This document shows, piece after piece, positions 7,403-64,000 of a stretch of 64,000 bases of DNA. Under the pieces are notes generated by a model. That model was not told the origin of the DNA. It ran no database searches and was given only the letters and a program-made list of their open reading frames with translations. The DNA comes from Escherichia coli (GTDB taxonomy: Bacteria; Pseudomonadota; Gammaproteobacteria; Enterobacterales; Enterobacteriaceae). Made by a program: the position numbers and the translations under genes. Location of the stretch: assembly GCF_003018255.1 (NCBI RefSeq), contig NZ_CP027440.1. The stretch is one strand, 5' to 3'. Position 1 is the stretch's first letter, and each line of letters begins with the position of its first letter.

Positions 7403-7476
7403 TTTCACACCGCCAGCTCAGCTGGCGGTGCTGTTTTGTAACCCGCCAAATCGGCGGTAACGAAAGAGGATAAACC

Positions 7477-9621
7477 GTGTCCCGTATTATTATGCTGATC
7501 CCTACCGGAACCAGCGTCGGTCTGACCAGCGTCAGCCTTGGCGTGATCCGTGCAATGGAACGCAAAGGCGTTCGTCTGAGCGTTTTCAAACCTATCGCTC
7601 AGCCGCGTACCGGTGGCGATGCGCCCGATCAGACTACGACTATCGTACGTGCGAACTCTTCCACTACGACGGCCGCTGAACCGCTGAAAATGAGCTACGT
7701 TGAAGGTCTGCTTTCCAGCAATCAGAAAGATGTGCTGATGGAAGAGATCGTCGCAAACTACCACGCTAACACCAAAGACGCTGAAGTCGTTCTGGTTGAA
7801 GGTCTGGTCCCGACACGTAAGCACCAGTTTGCCCAGTCTCTGAACTACGAAATCGCTAAAACGCTGAATGCGGAAATCGTCTTCGTTATGTCTCAGGGCA
7901 CTGACACCCCGGAACAGCTGAAAGAGCGTATCGAACTGACCCGCAACAGCTTCGGCGGTGCCAAAAACACCAACATCACCGGCGTTATCGTTAACAAACT
8001 GAATGCACCGGTTGATGAACAGGGCCGTACTCGCCCGGATCTGTCCGAGATTTTCGACGACTCTTCCAAAGCTAAAGTAAACAATGTTGATCCGGCGAAG
8101 CTGCAAGAATCCAGCCCGCTGCCGGTTCTCGGCGCAGTGCCGTGGAGCTTTGACCTGATCGCGACTCGTGCGATCGATATGGCTCGCCACCTGAATGCGA
8201 CCATCATCAACGAAGGCGACATCAATACTCGCCGCGTTAAATCCGTCACTTTCTGCGCACGCAGCATTCCGCACATGCTGGAGCACTTCCGTGCCGGTTC
8301 TCTGCTGGTGACTTCCGCAGACCGTCCTGACGTGCTGGTTGCCGCGTGCCTGGCTGCCATGAACGGCGTAGAAATCGGTGCCCTGCTGCTGACTGGCGGC
8401 TACGAAATGGACGCGCGCATTTCTAAACTGTGCGAACGTGCTTTCGCTACCGGCCTGCCGGTATTTATGGTGAACACCAACACCTGGCAGACTTCTCTGA
8501 GCCTGCAGAGCTTCAACCTGGAAGTTCCGGTTGACGATCACGAGCGTATCGAGAAAGTTCAGGAATACGTTGCTAACTACATCAACGCTGACTGGATCGA
8601 TTCTCTGACGGCCACTTCTGAGCGCAGCCGTCGTCTGTCTCCGCCAGCGTTCCGTTATCAGCTGACTGAACTTGCGCGCAAAGCGGGCAAACGTATCGTT
8701 CTGCCGGAAGGTGACGAACCGCGTACCGTTAAGGCAGCCGCTATCTGTGCTGAACGTGGTATCGCAACTTGCGTACTGCTGGGTAATCCGGCAGAGATCA
8801 ACCGTGTTGCAGCGTCTCAGGGTGTAGAACTGGGTGCAGGCATTGAAATCGTTGATCCAGAAGTGGTTCGCGAAAGCTATGTTGGTCGTCTGGTCGAGCT
8901 GCGTAAGAACAAAGGCATGACCGAAACCGTTGCCCGCGAACAGCTGGAAGATAACGTGGTTCTCGGTACGCTGATGCTGGAACAGGATGAAGTTGATGGT
9001 CTGGTTTCCGGTGCTGTTCACACTACCGCAAACACCATCCGTCCGCCGCTGCAGCTGATCAAAACTGCACCGGGCAGCTCCCTGGTATCTTCCGTGTTCT
9101 TCATGCTGCTGCCGGAACAGGTTTACGTTTACGGTGACTGTGCGATCAACCCGGATCCGACCGCAGAACAGCTGGCAGAAATCGCGATTCAGTCCGCAGA
9201 TTCCGCTGCGGCCTTCGGTATCGAACCGCGCGTTGCTATGCTCTCCTACTCCACCGGGACTTCTGGTGCTGGTAGCGACGTAGAAAAAGTTCGCGAAGCA
9301 ACTCGTCTGGCGCAGGAAAAACGTCCTGACCTGATGATCGACGGTCCGCTGCAGTACGACGCTGCGGTAATGGCTGACGTTGCGAAATCCAAAGCACCGA
9401 ACTCTCCGGTTGCAGGTCGCGCTACCGTGTTCATCTTCCCGGATCTGAACACCGGTAACACCACCTACAAAGCGGTACAGCGTTCTGCTGACCTGATCTC
9501 TATCGGACCGATGCTGCAGGGTATGCGCAAGCCGGTTAACGACCTGTCCCGTGGCGCACTGGTTGACGATATCGTCTACACCATCGCGCTGACTGCGATT
9601 CAGTCTGCACAGCAGCAGTAA
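7477..9621 (+). CDS. pta: Phosphate acetyltransferase
   Basis: 714-aa ORF; recognised Pta; ackA-pta operon. Confidence 0.97.
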
Positions 9622-9661
9622 TCTCGTCATCATCCGCAGCTTTACGCTGCGGATATCTGAA

Positions 9662-9690
9662 CCGGAAATAGTCACTATTTCCGGTTTTTT
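9662..9690 (+). terminator. Rho-independent terminator of ackA-pta
   Basis: hairpin ccggaaatagtcactatttccgg followed by tttttt. Confidence 0.85.
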
Positions 9691-57451: not shown

Positions 57452-57526
57452 GTCCTCTTAGTTAAATGGATATAACGAGCCCCTCCTAAGGGCTAATTGC
57501 AGGTTCGATTCCTGCAGGGGACACCA
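57452..57526 (+). tRNA. argW: tRNA-Arg (anticodon CCU)
   Basis: 75-nt sequence read directly, matches argW as recalled; anticodon loop cuCCUaa; ends ..ACACCA. Confidence 0.95.
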
Positions 57527-57967: not shown

Positions 57968-59215
57968 CTATATTGCTGAAGGTACAGGCGTTTCCATAAC
58001 TATTTGCTCGCGTTTTTTACTCAGGAAGAAAATGCCAAATAGCAACATCAGGCAGACAATACCCGAAATTGCGAAGAAAACTGTCTGGTAGCCTGCGTGG
58101 TCAAAGAGTATCCCAGTCGGCGTTGAAAGCAGCACAATCCCAAGCGAACTGGCAATTTGAAAACCAATCAGAAAGATCGTCGACGACAGGCGCTTATCAA
58201 AGTTTGCCACGCTGTATTTGAAGACGGATATGACACAAAGTGGAACCTCAATGGCATGTAACAGCTTCACTAATGAAATAATCCAGGGGTTAACGAACAG
58301 CGCGCAGGAAAGGATACGCAACGCCATAATCACAACACCGATAAGTAATGCATTTTTTGGCCCTACCCGATTCACAAAGAAAGGAATAATCGCCATGCAC
58401 AGCGCTTCGAGTACCACCTGGAATGAGTTGAGATAACCATACAGGCGCGTTCCTACATCGTGTGATTCGAATAAACCTGCATAAAAGACAGGAAAGAGTT
58501 GTTGATCAAAAATGTTATAGAAAGACCACGTCCCCACAATAAATATGACAAAAACCCAGAAGTTTCGATCCTTGAAAACTGCGATAAAATCCTCTTTTTT
58601 TACCCCTCCCGCATCCGCCGCTATGCACTGGTGATCCTTATCTTTAAAACGCATGTTGATCATCATAAATACAGCGCCAAATAGCGAGACCAACCAGAAG
58701 TTGATATGGGGACTGATACTAAAAAATATACCAGCAAAGAACGCGCCAATAGCATAGCCAAAAGATCCCCAGGCGCGCGCTGTTCCATATTCGAAATGAA
58801 AATTTCGCGCCATTTTTTCGGTGAAGCTGTCAAGCAAACCGCATCCCGCCAGATACCCCAGGCCAAAAAAGAGCGCCCCCAGAATTAGACCTACAGAAAA
58901 ATTGCTTTGCAGTAACGGTTCATAAACGTAAATCATAAACGGTCCGGTCAAGACCAGAATGAAACTCATACACCAGATGAGCGGTTTCTTCAGACCGAGT
59001 TTATCCTGAACGATGCCGTAGAACATCATAAATAGAATGCTGGTAAACTGGTTGACCGAATAAAGTGTACCTAATTCCGTCCCTGTTAATCCTAGATGTC
59101 CTTTCAGCCAAATAGCGTATAACGACCACCACAGCGACCAGGAAATAAAAAAGAGAAATGAGTAACTGGATGCAAAACGATAGTACGCATTTCTGAATGG
59201 AATATTCAGTGCCAT
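57968..59215 (-). CDS. cscB: Sucrose:H+ symporter (MFS)
   Basis: 415-aa ORF; MALNIPFRNAYYRFASSYSFLFF.. recognised as CscB. Confidence 0.93.
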   Translation of the reverse strand: MALNIPFRNAYYRFASSYSFLFFISWSLWWSLYAIWLKGHLGLTGTELGTLYSVNQFTSILFMMFYGIVQDKLGLKKPLIWCMSFILVLTGPFMIYVYEPLLQSNFSVGLILGALFFGLGYLAGCGLLDSFTEKMARNFHFEYGTARAWGSFGYAIGAFFAGIFFSISPHINFWLVSLFGAVFMMINMRFKDKDHQCIAADAGGVKKEDFIAVFKDRNFWVFVIFIVGTWSFYNIFDQQLFPVFYAGLFESHDVGTRLYGYLNSFQVVLEALCMAIIPFFVNRVGPKNALLIGVVIMALRILSCALFVNPWIISLVKLLHAIEVPLCVISVFKYSVANFDKRLSSTIFLIGFQIASSLGIVLLSTPTGILFDHAGYQTVFFAISGIVCLMLLFGIFFLSKKREQIVMETPVPSAI

Positions 59216-59286
59216 AATTACCTGCCTGTCGTTAAAAAATTCATGTCCTATTTAGAGATAAGAGCGGCCTCGCCGTTTACTTCTCA

Positions 59287-60201
59287 CTATTCCAGTTCTT
59301 GTCGACATGGCAGCGCTGTCATCGCCCCTTTCGCCGTTACTGCAAGCGCTCCGCAACGTTGAGCGAGATCGATAATTCGTCGCATTTCTCTTTCATCTGT
59401 AGATAATCCCGTAGAGGACAGACCTGTGAGTAACCCGGCAACGAACGCATCTCCCGCCCCCGTGCTATCGACACAATTCACAGACATTCCAGCAAAATGG
59501 TGAACTTGTCCTCGATAACAGACCACCACCCCTTCTGCACCTTTAGTCACCAACAGCATGGCGATCTCATACTCTTTTGCCAGGGCGCATATATCCCAAT
59601 CGTTCTGTGTTTTTCCACTGATAAGTCGCCATTCTTCTTCCGAGAGCTTGACGACATCCGCCAGTTGTAGCGCCTGCCGCAAACACAAGCGGAGCAAATG
59701 CTCGTCTTGCCATAGATCTTCACGAATATTGGGATCGAAGCTGACAAAACCTCCGGCATGCCGGATCGCCGTCATCGCAGTAAATGCGCTGGTACGCGAA
59801 GGCTCGGCAGACAACGCAATTGAACAGAGATGTAACCATTCGCCATGTCGCCAGCAGGGCAAGTCTGTCGTCTCTAAAAAAAGATCGGCACTGGGGCGGA
59901 CCATAAACGTAAATGAACGTTCTCCTTGATCGTTCAGATCGACAAGCACCGTGGATGTCCGGTGCCATTCATCTTGCTTCAGATACGTGATATCGACACC
60001 CTCAGTTAGCAGCGTTCTTTGCATTAACGCACCAAAAGGATCATCACCGACCCGACCTATAAACCCACTTGTTCCGCCTAATCTGGCGATTCCCACCGCA
60101 ACGTTAGCTGGCGCGCCGCCAGGACAAGGTAGTAGCCGCCCGTCTGATTCTGGCAAGAGATCTACGACCGCATCCCCTAAAACCCATACTTTGGCTGACA
60201 T
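59287..60201 (-). CDS. cscK: Fructokinase (PfkB family)
   Basis: 304-aa ORF; ribokinase-family motifs (..DSTGAGDAF..). Confidence 0.9.
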   Translation of the reverse strand: MSAKVWVLGDAVVDLLPESDGRLLPCPGGAPANVAVGIARLGGTSGFIGRVGDDPFGALMQRTLLTEGVDITYLKQDEWHRTSTVLVDLNDQGERSFTFMVRPSADLFLETTDLPCWRHGEWLHLCSIALSAEPSRTSAFTAMTAIRHAGGFVSFDPNIREDLWQDEHLLRLCLRQALQLADVVKLSEEEWRLISGKTQNDWDICALAKEYEIAMLLVTKGAEGVVVCYRGQVHHFAGMSVNCVDSTGAGDAFVAGLLTGLSSTGLSTDEREMRRIIDLAQRCGALAVTAKGAMTALPCRQELE

Positions 60202-60306
60202 TTTTTTCCCTTAAATTCATCTGACTTACGCATAGTGATAAACCTCTTTTTCGCAAAATCGTCATGGATTTACTAAAACATGCATATTCGATCACAAAAC
60301 GTCATA

Positions 60307-60318
60307 GTTAACGTTAAC
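60307..60318. promoter_or_regulatory. Putative CscR operator 1 (perfect 12-bp palindrome)
   Basis: gttaacgttaac in the cscK-cscA divergent intergenic region. Confidence 0.5.
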
Positions 60319-60370
60319 ATTTGTGATATTCATCGCATTTATGAAAGTAAGGGACTTTATTTTTATAAAA

Positions 60371-60382
60371 GTTAACGTTAAC
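60371..60382. promoter_or_regulatory. Putative CscR operator 2 (same 12-bp palindrome)
   Basis: second exact copy of gttaacgttaac, 64 bp from the first, ~35 bp upstream of cscA start. Confidence 0.5.
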
Positions 60383-60416
60383 AATTCACCCAATTTGCTT
60401 AACCAGGATGATAAAA

Positions 60417-61850
60417 ATGACGCAATCTCGATTACATGCGGCGCAAAACGCACTAGCAAAACTTCACGAGCGCCGAGGTAACACTTTCTATCCCCATTTT
60501 CACCTCGCGCCTCCCGCCGGGTGGATGAACGATCCAAACGGCCTAATCTGGTTTAACGATCGTTATCACGCGTTTTATCAACATCACCCGATGAGCGAAC
60601 ACTGGGGGCCAATGCACTGGGGACATGCCACCAGCGACGATATGATCCACTGGCAGCATGAGCCTATTGCGCTAGCGCCAGGAGACGAGAATGACAAAGA
60701 CGGGTGTTTTTCAGGTAGTGCTGTCGATGACAATGGTGTCCTCTCACTTATCTACACCGGACACGTCTGGCTCGATGGTGCAGGTAATGACGATGCAATT
60801 CGCGAAGTACAATGTCTGGCTACCAGTCGGGATGGTATTCATTTCGAGAAACAGGGTGTGATCCTCACTCCACCAGAAGGCATCATGCACTTCCGCGATC
60901 CTAAAGTGTGGCGTGAAGCCGACACATGGTGGATGGTAGTCGGGGCGAAAGATCCAGGCAACACGGGGCAGATCCTGCTTTATCGCGGCAGTTCATTGCG
61001 TGAATGGACTTTCGATCGCGTACTGGCCCACGCTGATGCGGGTGAAAGCTATATGTGGGAATGTCCGGACTTTTTCAGCCTTGGCGATCAGCATTATCTG
61101 ATGTTTTCCCCGCAGGGAATGAATGCCGAGGGATACAGTTACCGAAATCGCTTTCAAAGTGGCGTAATACCCGGAATGTGGTCGCCAGGACGACTTTTTG
61201 CACAATCCGGGCATTTTACTGAACTTGATAGCGGGCATGACTTTTATGCACCACAAAGCTTTTTAGCGAAGGATGGTCGGCGTATTGTTATCGGCTGGAT
61301 GGATATGTGGGAATCGCCAATGCCCTCAAAACGTGAAGGCTGGGCAGGCTGCATGACGCTGGCGCGCGAGCTATCAGAGAGCAATGGCAAACTTCTACAA
61401 CGCCCGGTACACGAAGCTGAGTCGTTACGCCAGCAGCATCAATCTATCTCTCCCCGCACAATCAGCAATAAATATGTTTTGCAGGAAAACGCGCAAGCAG
61501 TTGAGATTCAGCTGCAGTGGGCGTTGAAGAACAGTGATGCCGAACATTACGGATTACAGCTCGGCACTGGAATGCGGCTGTATATTGATAACCAATCTGA
61601 GCGACTTGTTTTGTGGCGGTATTACCCACACGAGAATTTAGATGGCTACCGTAGTATTCCCCTCCCGCAGGGTGACATGCTCGCCCTAAGGATATTTATC
61701 GATACATCATCCGTGGAAGTATTTATTAACGACGGGGAGGCGGTGATGAGTAGCCGAATATATCCGCAGCCAGAAGAACGGGAACTGTCGCTCTATGCCT
61801 CCCACGGAGTGGCTGTGCTGCAACATGGAGCACTCTGGCAACTGGGTTAA
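60417..61850 (+). CDS. cscA: Sucrose-6-phosphate hydrolase / invertase (GH32)
   Basis: 477 aa from MTQSRLHAAQN..; GH32 N-terminal motif WMNDPNG. Confidence 0.93.
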   Translation: MTQSRLHAAQNALAKLHERRGNTFYPHFHLAPPAGWMNDPNGLIWFNDRYHAFYQHHPMSEHWGPMHWGHATSDDMIHWQHEPIALAPGDENDKDGCFSGSAVDDNGVLSLIYTGHVWLDGAGNDDAIREVQCLATSRDGIHFEKQGVILTPPEGIMHFRDPKVWREADTWWMVVGAKDPGNTGQILLYRGSSLREWTFDRVLAHADAGESYMWECPDFFSLGDQHYLMFSPQGMNAEGYSYRNRFQSGVIPGMWSPGRLFAQSGHFTELDSGHDFYAPQSFLAKDGRRIVIGWMDMWESPMPSKREGWAGCMTLARELSESNGKLLQRPVHEAESLRQQHQSISPRTISNKYVLQENAQAVEIQLQWALKNSDAEHYGLQLGTGMRLYIDNQSERLVLWRYYPHENLDGYRSIPLPQGDMLALRIFIDTSSVEVFINDGEAVMSSRIYPQPEERELSLYASHGVAVLQHGALWQLG

Positions 61851-61857
61851 CATAATA

Positions 61858-62853
61858 TCAGGTGGAACAACGGATCAACAGCGGGCAAGGGATCCGCGTC
61901 ACTCTTCCCCCTTCACGATCTTCAATAATATGCAATGCAGCTTCCCGCCCGATAATGTCATGTGGAAGCTGAATTGTGGTCAGCGGCGGTAAAAACAGAT
62001 GCCCGACGCCAACCAGATTATCAAAGCCCATTACGGCGACATCCTGCGGGATACGTACCCCCTTCGCCAGGAGAACCTGATAAGCGACAAAGGCTGCGCG
62101 ATCGTTACCACATATCAGAACATCAAAATCTGGTTTGCCCGATTTGAAGTGGTCATTGAGTAAACTTGCGAGATCGGTGTAGTGATCATCACCTGTTGCC
62201 ATGTGAAATTGTTTCACCTCAGCCAGATCTCGTCCAGCATCACGCCAGGCCTGCTCAAATCCCTGCCGACGATACCCTGTTGCCAACGCACTTTCCGGTA
62301 GCCAGAAGCATAACGGTTGACGATAGCCCGCCGCGAGCAAATGCTGTGTTGATTCATATTGTGCAGTGTAATCATCAGGGATATAACTGGGTAACGCTGG
62401 GTCATCCGCCACACAGTTCGCCAATACAATATTTTCACCATACAGAGACTCAGGCAGCGAGATATGTCGCAGCCCCATTGTAGTATAGATAATGCCATCC
62501 GGACGGTGGGCAAGCAGCTGACGTGCCGCGCGGGCAGCGTCATCTTCAGAAAAAATATTGATTAAAAAACTATTCCAGCCAAACTCGCTGGCGGTTTGCT
62601 CAATGGCAAGCAGAATATCAACAGAGAAAGGAGTGGTGGCCGTGTCCTGCGCCAGCACGGCGAGAGTCGACGGCTTACGTCCTTGAGCGCGCATCTTACG
62701 GGCGGAAAGATCAGGAACATAATTCAGGGTCTGGATTGCCTGCAATACGCGGTCACGCGTTGCAGGACGCACAGATTCTGCATTATGCATCACCCGGGAG
62801 ACTGTCATCATCGACACTCCCGCCAGGCGTGCGACATCCTTTAATGAAGCCAT
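61858..62853 (-). CDS. cscR: LacI-family sucrose operon repressor
   Basis: 332 aa from MASLKDVARLAGVSMMTVSRV (HTH); ORF track over-extended upstream to 63051. Confidence 0.9.
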   Translation of the reverse strand: MASLKDVARLAGVSMMTVSRVMHNAESVRPATRDRVLQAIQTLNYVPDLSARKMRAQGRKPSTLAVLAQDTATTPFSVDILLAIEQTASEFGWNSFLINIFSEDDAARAARQLLAHRPDGIIYTTMGLRHISLPESLYGENIVLANCVADDPALPSYIPDDYTAQYESTQHLLAAGYRQPLCFWLPESALATGYRRQGFEQAWRDAGRDLAEVKQFHMATGDDHYTDLASLLNDHFKSGKPDFDVLICGNDRAAFVAYQVLLAKGVRIPQDVAVMGFDNLVGVGHLFLPPLTTIQLPHDIIGREAALHIIEDREGGRVTRIPCPLLIRCST

Positions 62854-63095
62854 ACCCAAGCCGTTTGCCGTAAAACGGGCACTGTAGCAGAAACAGACGT
62901 CACTGGCGAGATCCAACGATATTCTCAACGCCCTATCACCCGACACGGCAATACAATAAAAAATAACAATAATTCCCGGACAATTGTACCCAATTCCGCC
63001 TCTGTTCTCGCCAACGAGTAACCATGTAGGCAAGTAGGTAAAACATGCCAACTGGCATCGCCAACCTGGAGAAGAAAATATAAATATGGATCATT

Positions 63096-63314
63096 GTGCT
63101 GCCGCTGTATCCCGACATCAGTCCGGAAATTATTGCGATTGCTATCGGTTCAGGTGCGATTGGCTGCACGATCGTTACGGACTCGCTTTTCTGGCTGGTG
63201 AAGCAATATTGCGGCGCTACGCTCAATGAAACATTTAAATACTATACGACAGCGACATTTATCGCTTCAGTCGTCGCTCTGGCGGGCACATTCCTGCTGT
63301 CATTTATCATCTAA
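63096..63314 (+). pseudogene. dsdX: 3' remnant of D-serine transporter gene dsdX (last ~72 codons)
   Basis: translation ..[71 protein letters not shown] matches DsdX C-terminus; no N-terminal part upstream. Confidence 0.85.
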
Positions 63315-63331
63315 GCGCAAAGAGACGTACT

Positions 63332-64000
63332 ATGGAAAACGCTAAAATGAACTCGCTCATCGCCCAGTATCCGTTGGTAAAGGATCTGGTTGCTCTTAAA
63401 GAAACCACCTGGTTTAATCCTGGCACGACCTCATTGGCTGAAGGTTTACCTTATGTTGGCCTGACCGAACAGGATGTTCAGGACGCCCATGCGCGCTTAT
63501 CCCGTTTTGCACCCTATCTGGCAAAAGCATTTCCTGAAACTGCTGCTACTGGGGGGATTATTGAATCAGAACTGGTTGCCATTCCGGCTATGCAAAAACG
63601 GCTGGAAAAGGAATATCAACAACCGATCAGCGGGCAACTGCTACTGAAAAAAGATAGCCATTTGCCCATTTCCGGCTCCATAAAAGCACGCGGCGGGATT
63701 TATGAAGTCCTGGCACATGCAGAAAAACTGGCTCTGGAAGCGGGGTTGCTGACGCTTGAAGATGACTACAGCAAACTGCTTTCTCCGGAGTTTAAACAGT
63801 TCTTTAGTCAATACAGCATTGCTGTGGGCTCAACCGGAAATCTGGGGTTATCAATCGGCATTATGAGCGCCCGCATTGGCTTTAAGGTGACAGTACATAT
63901 GTCTGCTGATGCCCGGGCATGGAAAAAAGCGAAACTGCGCAGCCATGGCGTTACGGTCGTGGAATATGAGCAAGATTATGGTGTTGCAGTCGAGGAAGGA
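63332..64000 (+). CDS. dsdA: D-serine dehydratase (5' partial; continues past window end)
   Basis: [31 protein letters not shown]..; PLP-lysine region ..SGSIKARGG. Confidence 0.95.

Follow-up and report, generated by a model that had tools for sequence, protein, structure and literature searches.

The intergenic region between the divergently transcribed genes cscK and cscA of Escherichia coli contains the same short palindrome twice. This locus raises the question of which regulator recognizes the two copies, and of what a pair of such sites may do that a single site would not. We addressed this in a stretch of E. coli DNA of 64,000 nt (in the following called the window), which we compared with the published work on csc regulation and with the loci of related regulators in other genera.

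In the account of Jahreis et al. 2002 that is given in PMC11251922 and PMC3938415, a 12-bp inverted repeat is present twice between cscA and cscK, and both copies are putative operators of the repressor CscR; PMC11251922 cites the same work for a derepressing up-mutation located in one of them. According to PMC11251922 (2024), the putative operators flank the -35 and -10 elements of the cscA promoter, with the downstream one reaching over the transcription start; beside the cscA -35 element lies a putative CRP site, and these operator and CRP elements are conserved in five species. Dependence on cAMP and putative CRP sites have been reported in both sources, and PMC3938415 cites two cAMP-CRP sites for the bidirectional csc promoter. 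Deletion of cscR derepresses the regulon, and operator mutations have the same phenotype (PMC11251922, PMC3938415). PMC3938415 recovered, as a spontaneous event, a mutation of the putative cscKB operator that, according to this source, had been observed earlier and shown to permit growth on low sucrose. The unit affected by the operator mutation differs by source, being cscA in PMC11251922 and cscKB in PMC3938415. In the accessible literature we found no direct CscR-DNA binding assay (EMSA or footprint); the evidence cited there is genetic and consists of operator up-mutations and cscR deletion. The only full-text hits for the 12-mer itself were cloning papers on other subjects.

Two copies of a 12-bp palindrome in the csc island

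The gene arrangement is that of a sucrose utilization island, with cscK and cscB facing away from cscA and with the repressor gene cscR in the same locus (Table 1). The island is flanked by a tRNA-Arg(CCU) gene (argW) at 57452-57526 on one side and by a truncated dsdX followed by dsdA (62900-64000) on the other, which is the known argW/dsd insertion site (PMC3032704). This site is a recombination hotspot, at which the utilization of sucrose and of D-serine has been reported to be mutually exclusive, and a small DUF4942 gene fragment adjoins the tRNA gene at the island edge. Of 5426 complete E. coli genomes, 2660 carry the cscK-cscA intergenic region at an identity of at least 95%, in each case on the chromosome. 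In one genome, that of E. coli UTAK-5 (NZ_CP157152.1), it matches two separate places, the better of which covers 64% of the query; this suggests that the csc promoter region was split there by an insertion or a rearrangement.

Table 1 Genes, palindromes and promoter elements of the csc region in the window (strand given as a dot for sites without orientation).
Feature	Position	Strand	Basis and remarks
cscB, sucrose permease (oligosaccharide MFS transporter)	57968-59215	-	TIGR00882, E = 8.6e-179
cscK, fructokinase	59287-60201	-	NF006957, E = 4e-152
cscK and cscB, divergent regulated operon	57968-60201	-	Profile matches
Candidate cscKB -10 element TATCAC	60235-60240	-	Predicted only; TGATAA at 60236-60241 invariant in the E. 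coli-type alignment
Distal CRP-like site TGCATATTCGATCACA	60281-60296	.	3 mismatches, good match in the right half only; separated from O1 by 10 nt
O1, cscK-proximal palindrome copy	60307-60318	.	Exact match; distal member of the pair kept in ~15 genera; putative operator in the literature
Proximal CRP-like site TGTGATATTCATCGCA	60322-60337	.	1 mismatch to TGTGAN6TCACA; 3 nt downstream of O1
Alternative candidate cscA -10 element TATTTT	60358-60363	+	Predicted, read from the sequence
Candidate cscA -10 element TATAAA	60364-60369	+	Predicted, read from the sequence
Conserved extension of O2, AAAGTTAACGTTAACAAT	60368-60385	.	Invariant block in the alignment
O2, cscA-proximal palindrome copy	60371-60382	.	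Exact match; ends 34 nt before the cscA ATG
cscA, GH32 sucrose hydrolase/invertase, downstream of O2	60417-61850	+	scrB_fam TIGR01322, E = 2.3e-143; RefSeq annotation
cscR, LacI-family repressor of 331 aa, with O1 and O2 as presumed binding sites	61858-62853	-	LacI-family matches; annotated as LacI family regulator

A search of the 64-kb window yielded exactly two exact copies of the palindrome GTTAACGTTAAC, which we call O1 and O2 and whose distance is 64 bp from start to start; O1 corresponds to what the literature names the 'cscKB operator'. The sequence is self-complementary and consists of the palindromic hexamer GTTAAC in tandem, with a CG step at its center. A sequence-only reading of this DNA had described the two as identical palindromes placed between the divergent cscKB and cscA units, the second about 35 bp before the cscA start. 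The copies match exactly, the gene coordinates agree with this placement, and O1 and O2 end 98 and 34 nt before the ATG of cscA, respectively. That a chance origin is improbable, as had also been claimed, was borne out by 100 dinucleotide-preserving shuffles, in which the 12-mer occurred on average 0.00 times and at maximum 0 times. Allowing up to two mismatches, nine matches were observed in the window against 2.2 expected.

The stretch common to O1 and O2 is identical over 14 nt (AGTTAACGTTAACA) and 94% identical over 17 nt. Outside this repeat of 14-17 nt the flanks are unrelated, so the two copies are not part of a larger duplication, and a segmental duplication around them was rejected on this ground.

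Two further sequence features of the window touch on the motif. The hexamer GTTAAC, an HpaI site, occurs 27 times in the whole window against 12.8 occurrences expected from shuffles, and the four copies within the operators account for only part of this excess. A copy of the 12-mer with one mismatch, GTTATCGTTAAC, lies at 7984-7995 and is the same variant as the distal operator of Cedecea- and Klebsiella-like loci. It is situated inside long open reading frames on both strands, 7477-9621(+) and 7405-9675(-), and was dismissed as an operator, being probably a chance match within coding sequence.

The two 12-bp inverted repeats of the window, together with their gene context, match the published csc operators in the description of PMC11251922, against which we compared them. 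The comparison with published operators that the earlier reading had called for thus ended in agreement with Jahreis et al. 2002, in the form in which that work is cited there. Locus, elements and feature are the same as in the csc operators of E. coli EC3132/W (Jahreis et al. 2002; Sabri et al. 2013; Stephens et al. 2024, PMC11251922). The palindromes are real and non-random, but they are already-published putative CscR sites, revisited in 2024; because these operators have been in the literature since 2002, their confirmation adds no new biology.

Conservation of palindrome, regulator and target promoter

Operators of the LacI family follow general rules of form and position: they are even-length palindromes with a central CG and typically lie 30-140 bp before the start codon (PMC4052901). 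O1 and O2 follow these rules in form, as perfect palindromes of even length centered on CG, and in their distances from the cscA ATG. To examine the link to the cognate regulator, we collected CscR orthologues, many at 54-79% identity, and used an alignment of 21 of them to retrieve 80 genomic loci. These encode CscR orthologues of 54-96% identity, stem from about 15 genera and comprise 1.26 Mb in total. The loci were assigned to Escherichia, Citrobacter, Pluralibacter, Tatumella, Pectobacterium, Samsonia, Cedecea, Rosenbergiella, Yersinia, Rahnella, Ewingella, Serratia, Providencia, Proteus, Moellerella, Pantoea, Zobellella and Gilliamella. The gene order varies among them. Divergent from cscA lies cscK, as in E. 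coli, or cscB, or cscR itself, and in some loci a different MFS transporter gene is located upstream of cscA within one operon.

Throughout these gene orders the exact 12-mer stays with the csc genes. We counted 104 exact copies in the 80 loci, all in non-coding DNA and all less than 400 bp from a csc-like gene, and none was found away from csc genes within the 1.26 Mb. Those copies whose position was determined lie in the promoter region of the operon that contains cscA. Defining a pair as two sites, each with no more than one mismatch, in front of the operon that contains cscA, we obtained 65 paired regions, 64 from the loci plus the window. The spacing is 64 bp in 40 of these, 63 bp in five and 62 bp in three; nine regions, all from Gilliamella, have 57 bp and eight, all from Proteus, have 68-69 bp. 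One exact copy is kept in Providencia and Moellerella. Among the loci lacking the 12-mer, three end before the promoter and five have the regulator but no cscA. The two-site geometry is not obligatory, as follows from the spacings in Gilliamella and Proteus and from the single exact copy in Providencia.

Within the alignment of E. coli-type intergenic regions the mean column identity is 76%, yet GTTAACGTTAACA and AAAGTTAACGTTAACAAT are fully invariant. In the 20 representatives with the 64-bp spacing that were compared across the loci, O2 is followed by AAT. This conservation bears on two explanations in which no protein would bind. One of them takes the two copies for the product of chance or of a neutral local duplication without function, and the segment common to both copies is indeed a direct repeat of 14-17 nt as well as a palindrome. 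We regard it as extremely improbable: no copies are expected by chance, the flanks are unrelated, both copies are invariant across genera in which the intervening sequence cannot be aligned, and every one of the 104 exact copies lies in non-coding DNA beside csc genes.

The other holds that the palindromes work through nucleic-acid structure, as a hairpin in the leader RNA of cscA or as a DNA cruciform. Perfect palindromes would lend themselves to this, and O2 could form part of the 5′ UTR; but O1 lies upstream of the cscA promoter, the predicted hairpin has a 4-bp A/U-rich stem of -0.8 kcal/mol and is no better than those of shuffled sequences, and it is the sequence itself that is conserved, with no compensatory variation or covariation. 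We rejected a role as hairpin or cruciform on the shuffle-level fold and the absent covariation, and give it next to no weight.

The regulator is conserved together with its presumed sites. The recognition segment of the CscR helix-turn-helix, VS[LM]MTVSR, is invariant in every operator-bearing locus. CscR aligns to residues 5-313 of the 360 residues of LacI and is probably a dimer, because the alignment ends before the C-terminal tetramerization helix. Its best NCBIfam match by score is the model for CytR, with 139.9 bits, far under the 436-bit cut-off of that model. The full length of CscR is covered by a match to the PDB entry 6ndi ('Transcriptional regulator', 334 aa; E = 8e-113), which is therefore a close structural template for modeling the CscR-operator complex.

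The core AACGTT is common to many LacI-family operators. This, together with the general rule of a central CG, would also fit operators of another LacI-family repressor encoded elsewhere, such as Cra/FruR, TreR or RbsR, with CscR acting at a different site. Such an assignment is very unlikely, since the exact 12-mer co-occurs with a neighboring CscR orthologue in about 15 genera under any gene order, the recognition helix of CscR is invariant wherever the motif is invariant, and the literature reports the same phenotype for cscR deletion and for operator mutations. Joint conservation of a regulator, its motif and the target promoter is what comparative analyses ordinarily rely on to identify an operator. 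With cscR in the same locus, its orthologues accompanied by the exact copies and its recognition helix unchanged, the best explanation is that O1 and O2 are, with high confidence, putative operators of CscR.

Some loci depart from the common arrangement. In the cscA-cscK intergenic region of Providencia (L031, L034, L036, L038, L040, L041 and L043) there is only one exact GTTAACGTTAAC, and about 45-55 nt past it a conserved near-palindrome, AACGCACGCGTTA (or ending in GAATTA), precedes TCACA and could represent a second operator that has diverged, or else the site of another regulator. In Gilliamella (L069-L080, around positions 7820-7860), two overlapping near-operators, TTTAACGTTAAC and GTTAATGTTAAC, lie 14 bp apart in the intergenic region that separates cscR from a cscB-like gene; this position suggests that the permease is regulated and that cscR controls its own expression. 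Five loci (L028 from Yersinia similis, L037 from Y. pestis, L044, L045 and L059) encode a CscR-like regulator without cscA and without the operator pair, and a lone ATTAACGTTAAC is found about 6 kb upstream in L028 and L037. In these two Yersinia loci, in which cscA was lost, the recognition helix of CscR carries a V18A change; together with the missing cscA and operator pair, this suggests remnants of a decaying system.

CRP-like sites and promoters around the operator pair

To delineate the architecture around the operators, the promoter regions were stacked in the direction of cscA and matches to the CRP consensus TGTGAN6TCACA were scored. From this comparison a conserved module emerged. 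It begins with a distal CRP-like site, followed after 10 nt by O1, after a further 3 nt by a proximal CRP site and after about 30 nt by O2; O2 is continued by AAT, and about 35-45 nt later the start codon follows. Across the loci the proximal CRP site has the consensus tGTGATTAACATCACA. A CRP-like site with at most two mismatches lies 3 nt from O1 in most loci and 4 nt from it in Gilliamella. In the window, the center of O1 is 17 bp from that of the proximal and 24 bp from that of the distal CRP-like site, and the two CRP centers are 41 bp apart.

The distal site is less uniform. Its part GATCACAAAAC is invariant in the alignment of E. coli-type intergenic regions, and in Yersinia and Serratia a site with no or one mismatch is present at the same offset from O1. 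The distal site is thus close to consensus in these two genera, in contrast to the decayed half-site of the E. coli-type locus.

Yersinia and Serratia are also informative with respect to gene orientation, as the nearest upstream gene is co-directional with the operon there, yet the complete set of two operators and two CRP sites is found. The sequence-only reading had taken the palindromes for CscR operators and had implied one operator for each divergent unit. The first part is upheld by the published assignment, by phylogenetic footprinting and by the form of the sites. The second part is probably too simple: since the pair is kept at the unidirectional promoters of Yersinia and Serratia, it does not simply provide one operator per divergent promoter. 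The operator pair probably predates the E. coli arrangement and appears to serve a single promoter in many genera.

A consensus scan of 60150-60470 detected no strong sigma-70 promoter and no terminator, and the absence of a sigma-70 consensus is as expected for a CRP-dependent promoter. Two candidates for the -10 element of cscA can be read from the sequence (Table 1). With TATAAA as the -10 element, transcription would possibly start near 60376 with the CRP site near -47, which matches the description in PMC11251922. With TATTTT, a start near 60371 is possible and would place the CRP site at -41.5, in class II geometry. For cscKB, TATCAC on the opposite strand is the only conserved -10-like element that we saw. 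If used, it would place the distal CRP-like site near -61 and O1 near -85 of the cscKB promoter, and these distances suggest that O1 acts there via CRP and not by occlusion of the polymerase.

Possible roles of the two operators

From these elements a mechanism can be proposed in which each 12-bp core, with its central CG and weak A/T flanks, would bind one presumably dimeric CscR. O2 would lie over or just past the transcription start of cscA, and bound CscR would block binding of RNA polymerase or promoter escape; this should hold under either reading of the cscA -10 element, because O2 covers the start region in both. At O1, CscR would most likely prevent or neutralize the activation of the cscA and cscKB promoters by cAMP-CRP. 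An operator of 18 bp at O1 and a proximal CRP site of 22 bp would overlap by 3 bp, and O1 is one helical turn away from the distal CRP-like site. A putative inducer derived from sucrose would release CscR from its sites.

A more specific version of this mechanism is tentative. In it, O1 and O2, together with the two CRP sites and the promoter, would form an ancestral module, rigid to the base pair, that serves one promoter in many genera; CscR at O1 would mainly exclude or mask cAMP-CRP at two tandem sites, resembling the anti-activation by CytR; and the cscKB promoter of E. coli would have been grafted onto the module, controlled only through the CRP-coupled route.

CytR opposes CRP at promoters of the deoP2/cdd type, where the site of this LacI-family repressor lies between two tandem CRP sites. 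The position of O1 is similar, between a distal CRP-like site (with three mismatches in E. coli) and a proximal one, at offsets that are conserved to the base pair across many genera. The two systems differ in several respects. The CRP centers are 41 bp apart at csc but about 52-53 bp at CytR promoters, the csc operator is strong and perfectly palindromic in contrast to the weak, CRP-dependent sites of CytR, and csc has a second operator, O2, at the transcription start, unlike CytR promoters. We know of no contact between CscR and CRP. The strength and perfect symmetry of the csc operator argue against a need for CRP, and we did not assign the feature to the CytR type.

A different role of the pair would be that O1 and O2 act as one unit through a CscR-CscR DNA loop around the cscA promoter and the proximal CRP site, as at lac and gal. 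With lac O1/O3 and gal OE/OI, the csc locus has in common that paired palindromic operators of the LacI family bracket a CRP-dependent promoter. The spacing of 64 bp, about 6.1 helical turns, is kept to the base pair in 40 of the 65 paired regions, and the pair persists at the unidirectional promoters of Yersinia and Serratia, both of which would be consistent with a loop. LacI, however, is a tetramer and GalR loops with the help of HU, whereas CscR lacks the C-terminal tetramerization helix, and the operators at lac and gal are spaced by 92 and 113 bp, against 64 bp at csc, which would make for a very tight loop. In Gilliamella (57 bp) and Proteus (68-69 bp), the two operators do not keep the helical phase of the 64-bp spacing, and the conserved CRP site and promoter between the operators explain the fixed spacing equally well. 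A loop is therefore rather unlikely, and a strict requirement for looping was downgraded on the out-of-phase spacings and the missing tetramerization helix. Given the strict 64-bp spacing elsewhere, we treat O1-O2 looping as a secondary possibility beside the CRP-coupled mechanism described above.

The sucrose repressor ScrR offers a further comparison. Like CscR, it is a LacI-family repressor of sucrose genes, with operators O1 and O2 at the scrY promoter of pUR400/Klebsiella (Jahreis and Lengeler 1993, as described in PMC11251922). It belongs to a non-orthologous group of the family whose motif is different from that of CscR (PMC4052901), and its operators are 14-bp repeats compared with 12 bp for csc. 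The pathway under ScrR control is of the PTS type, and the repressor responds to fructose or fructose-1-phosphate.

Sucrose-feedstock engineering in E. coli W builds on the csc regulon, which is variable across pathogenic and commensal strains of the species, and knowledge of the exact sites of CscR action is useful for the design of derepressed or tunable strains. Whereas PMC11251922 reported conservation in five species, the present comparison extends it to about 15 genera, and the distal CRP-like site and O1 are found to persist without a divergent operon. The added value is modest and lies in the breadth of this conservation, which covers the exact core, the 64-bp spacing and the fixed offsets to two CRP sites. 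The conserved layout suggests a putative coupling between CscR and CRP at O1.
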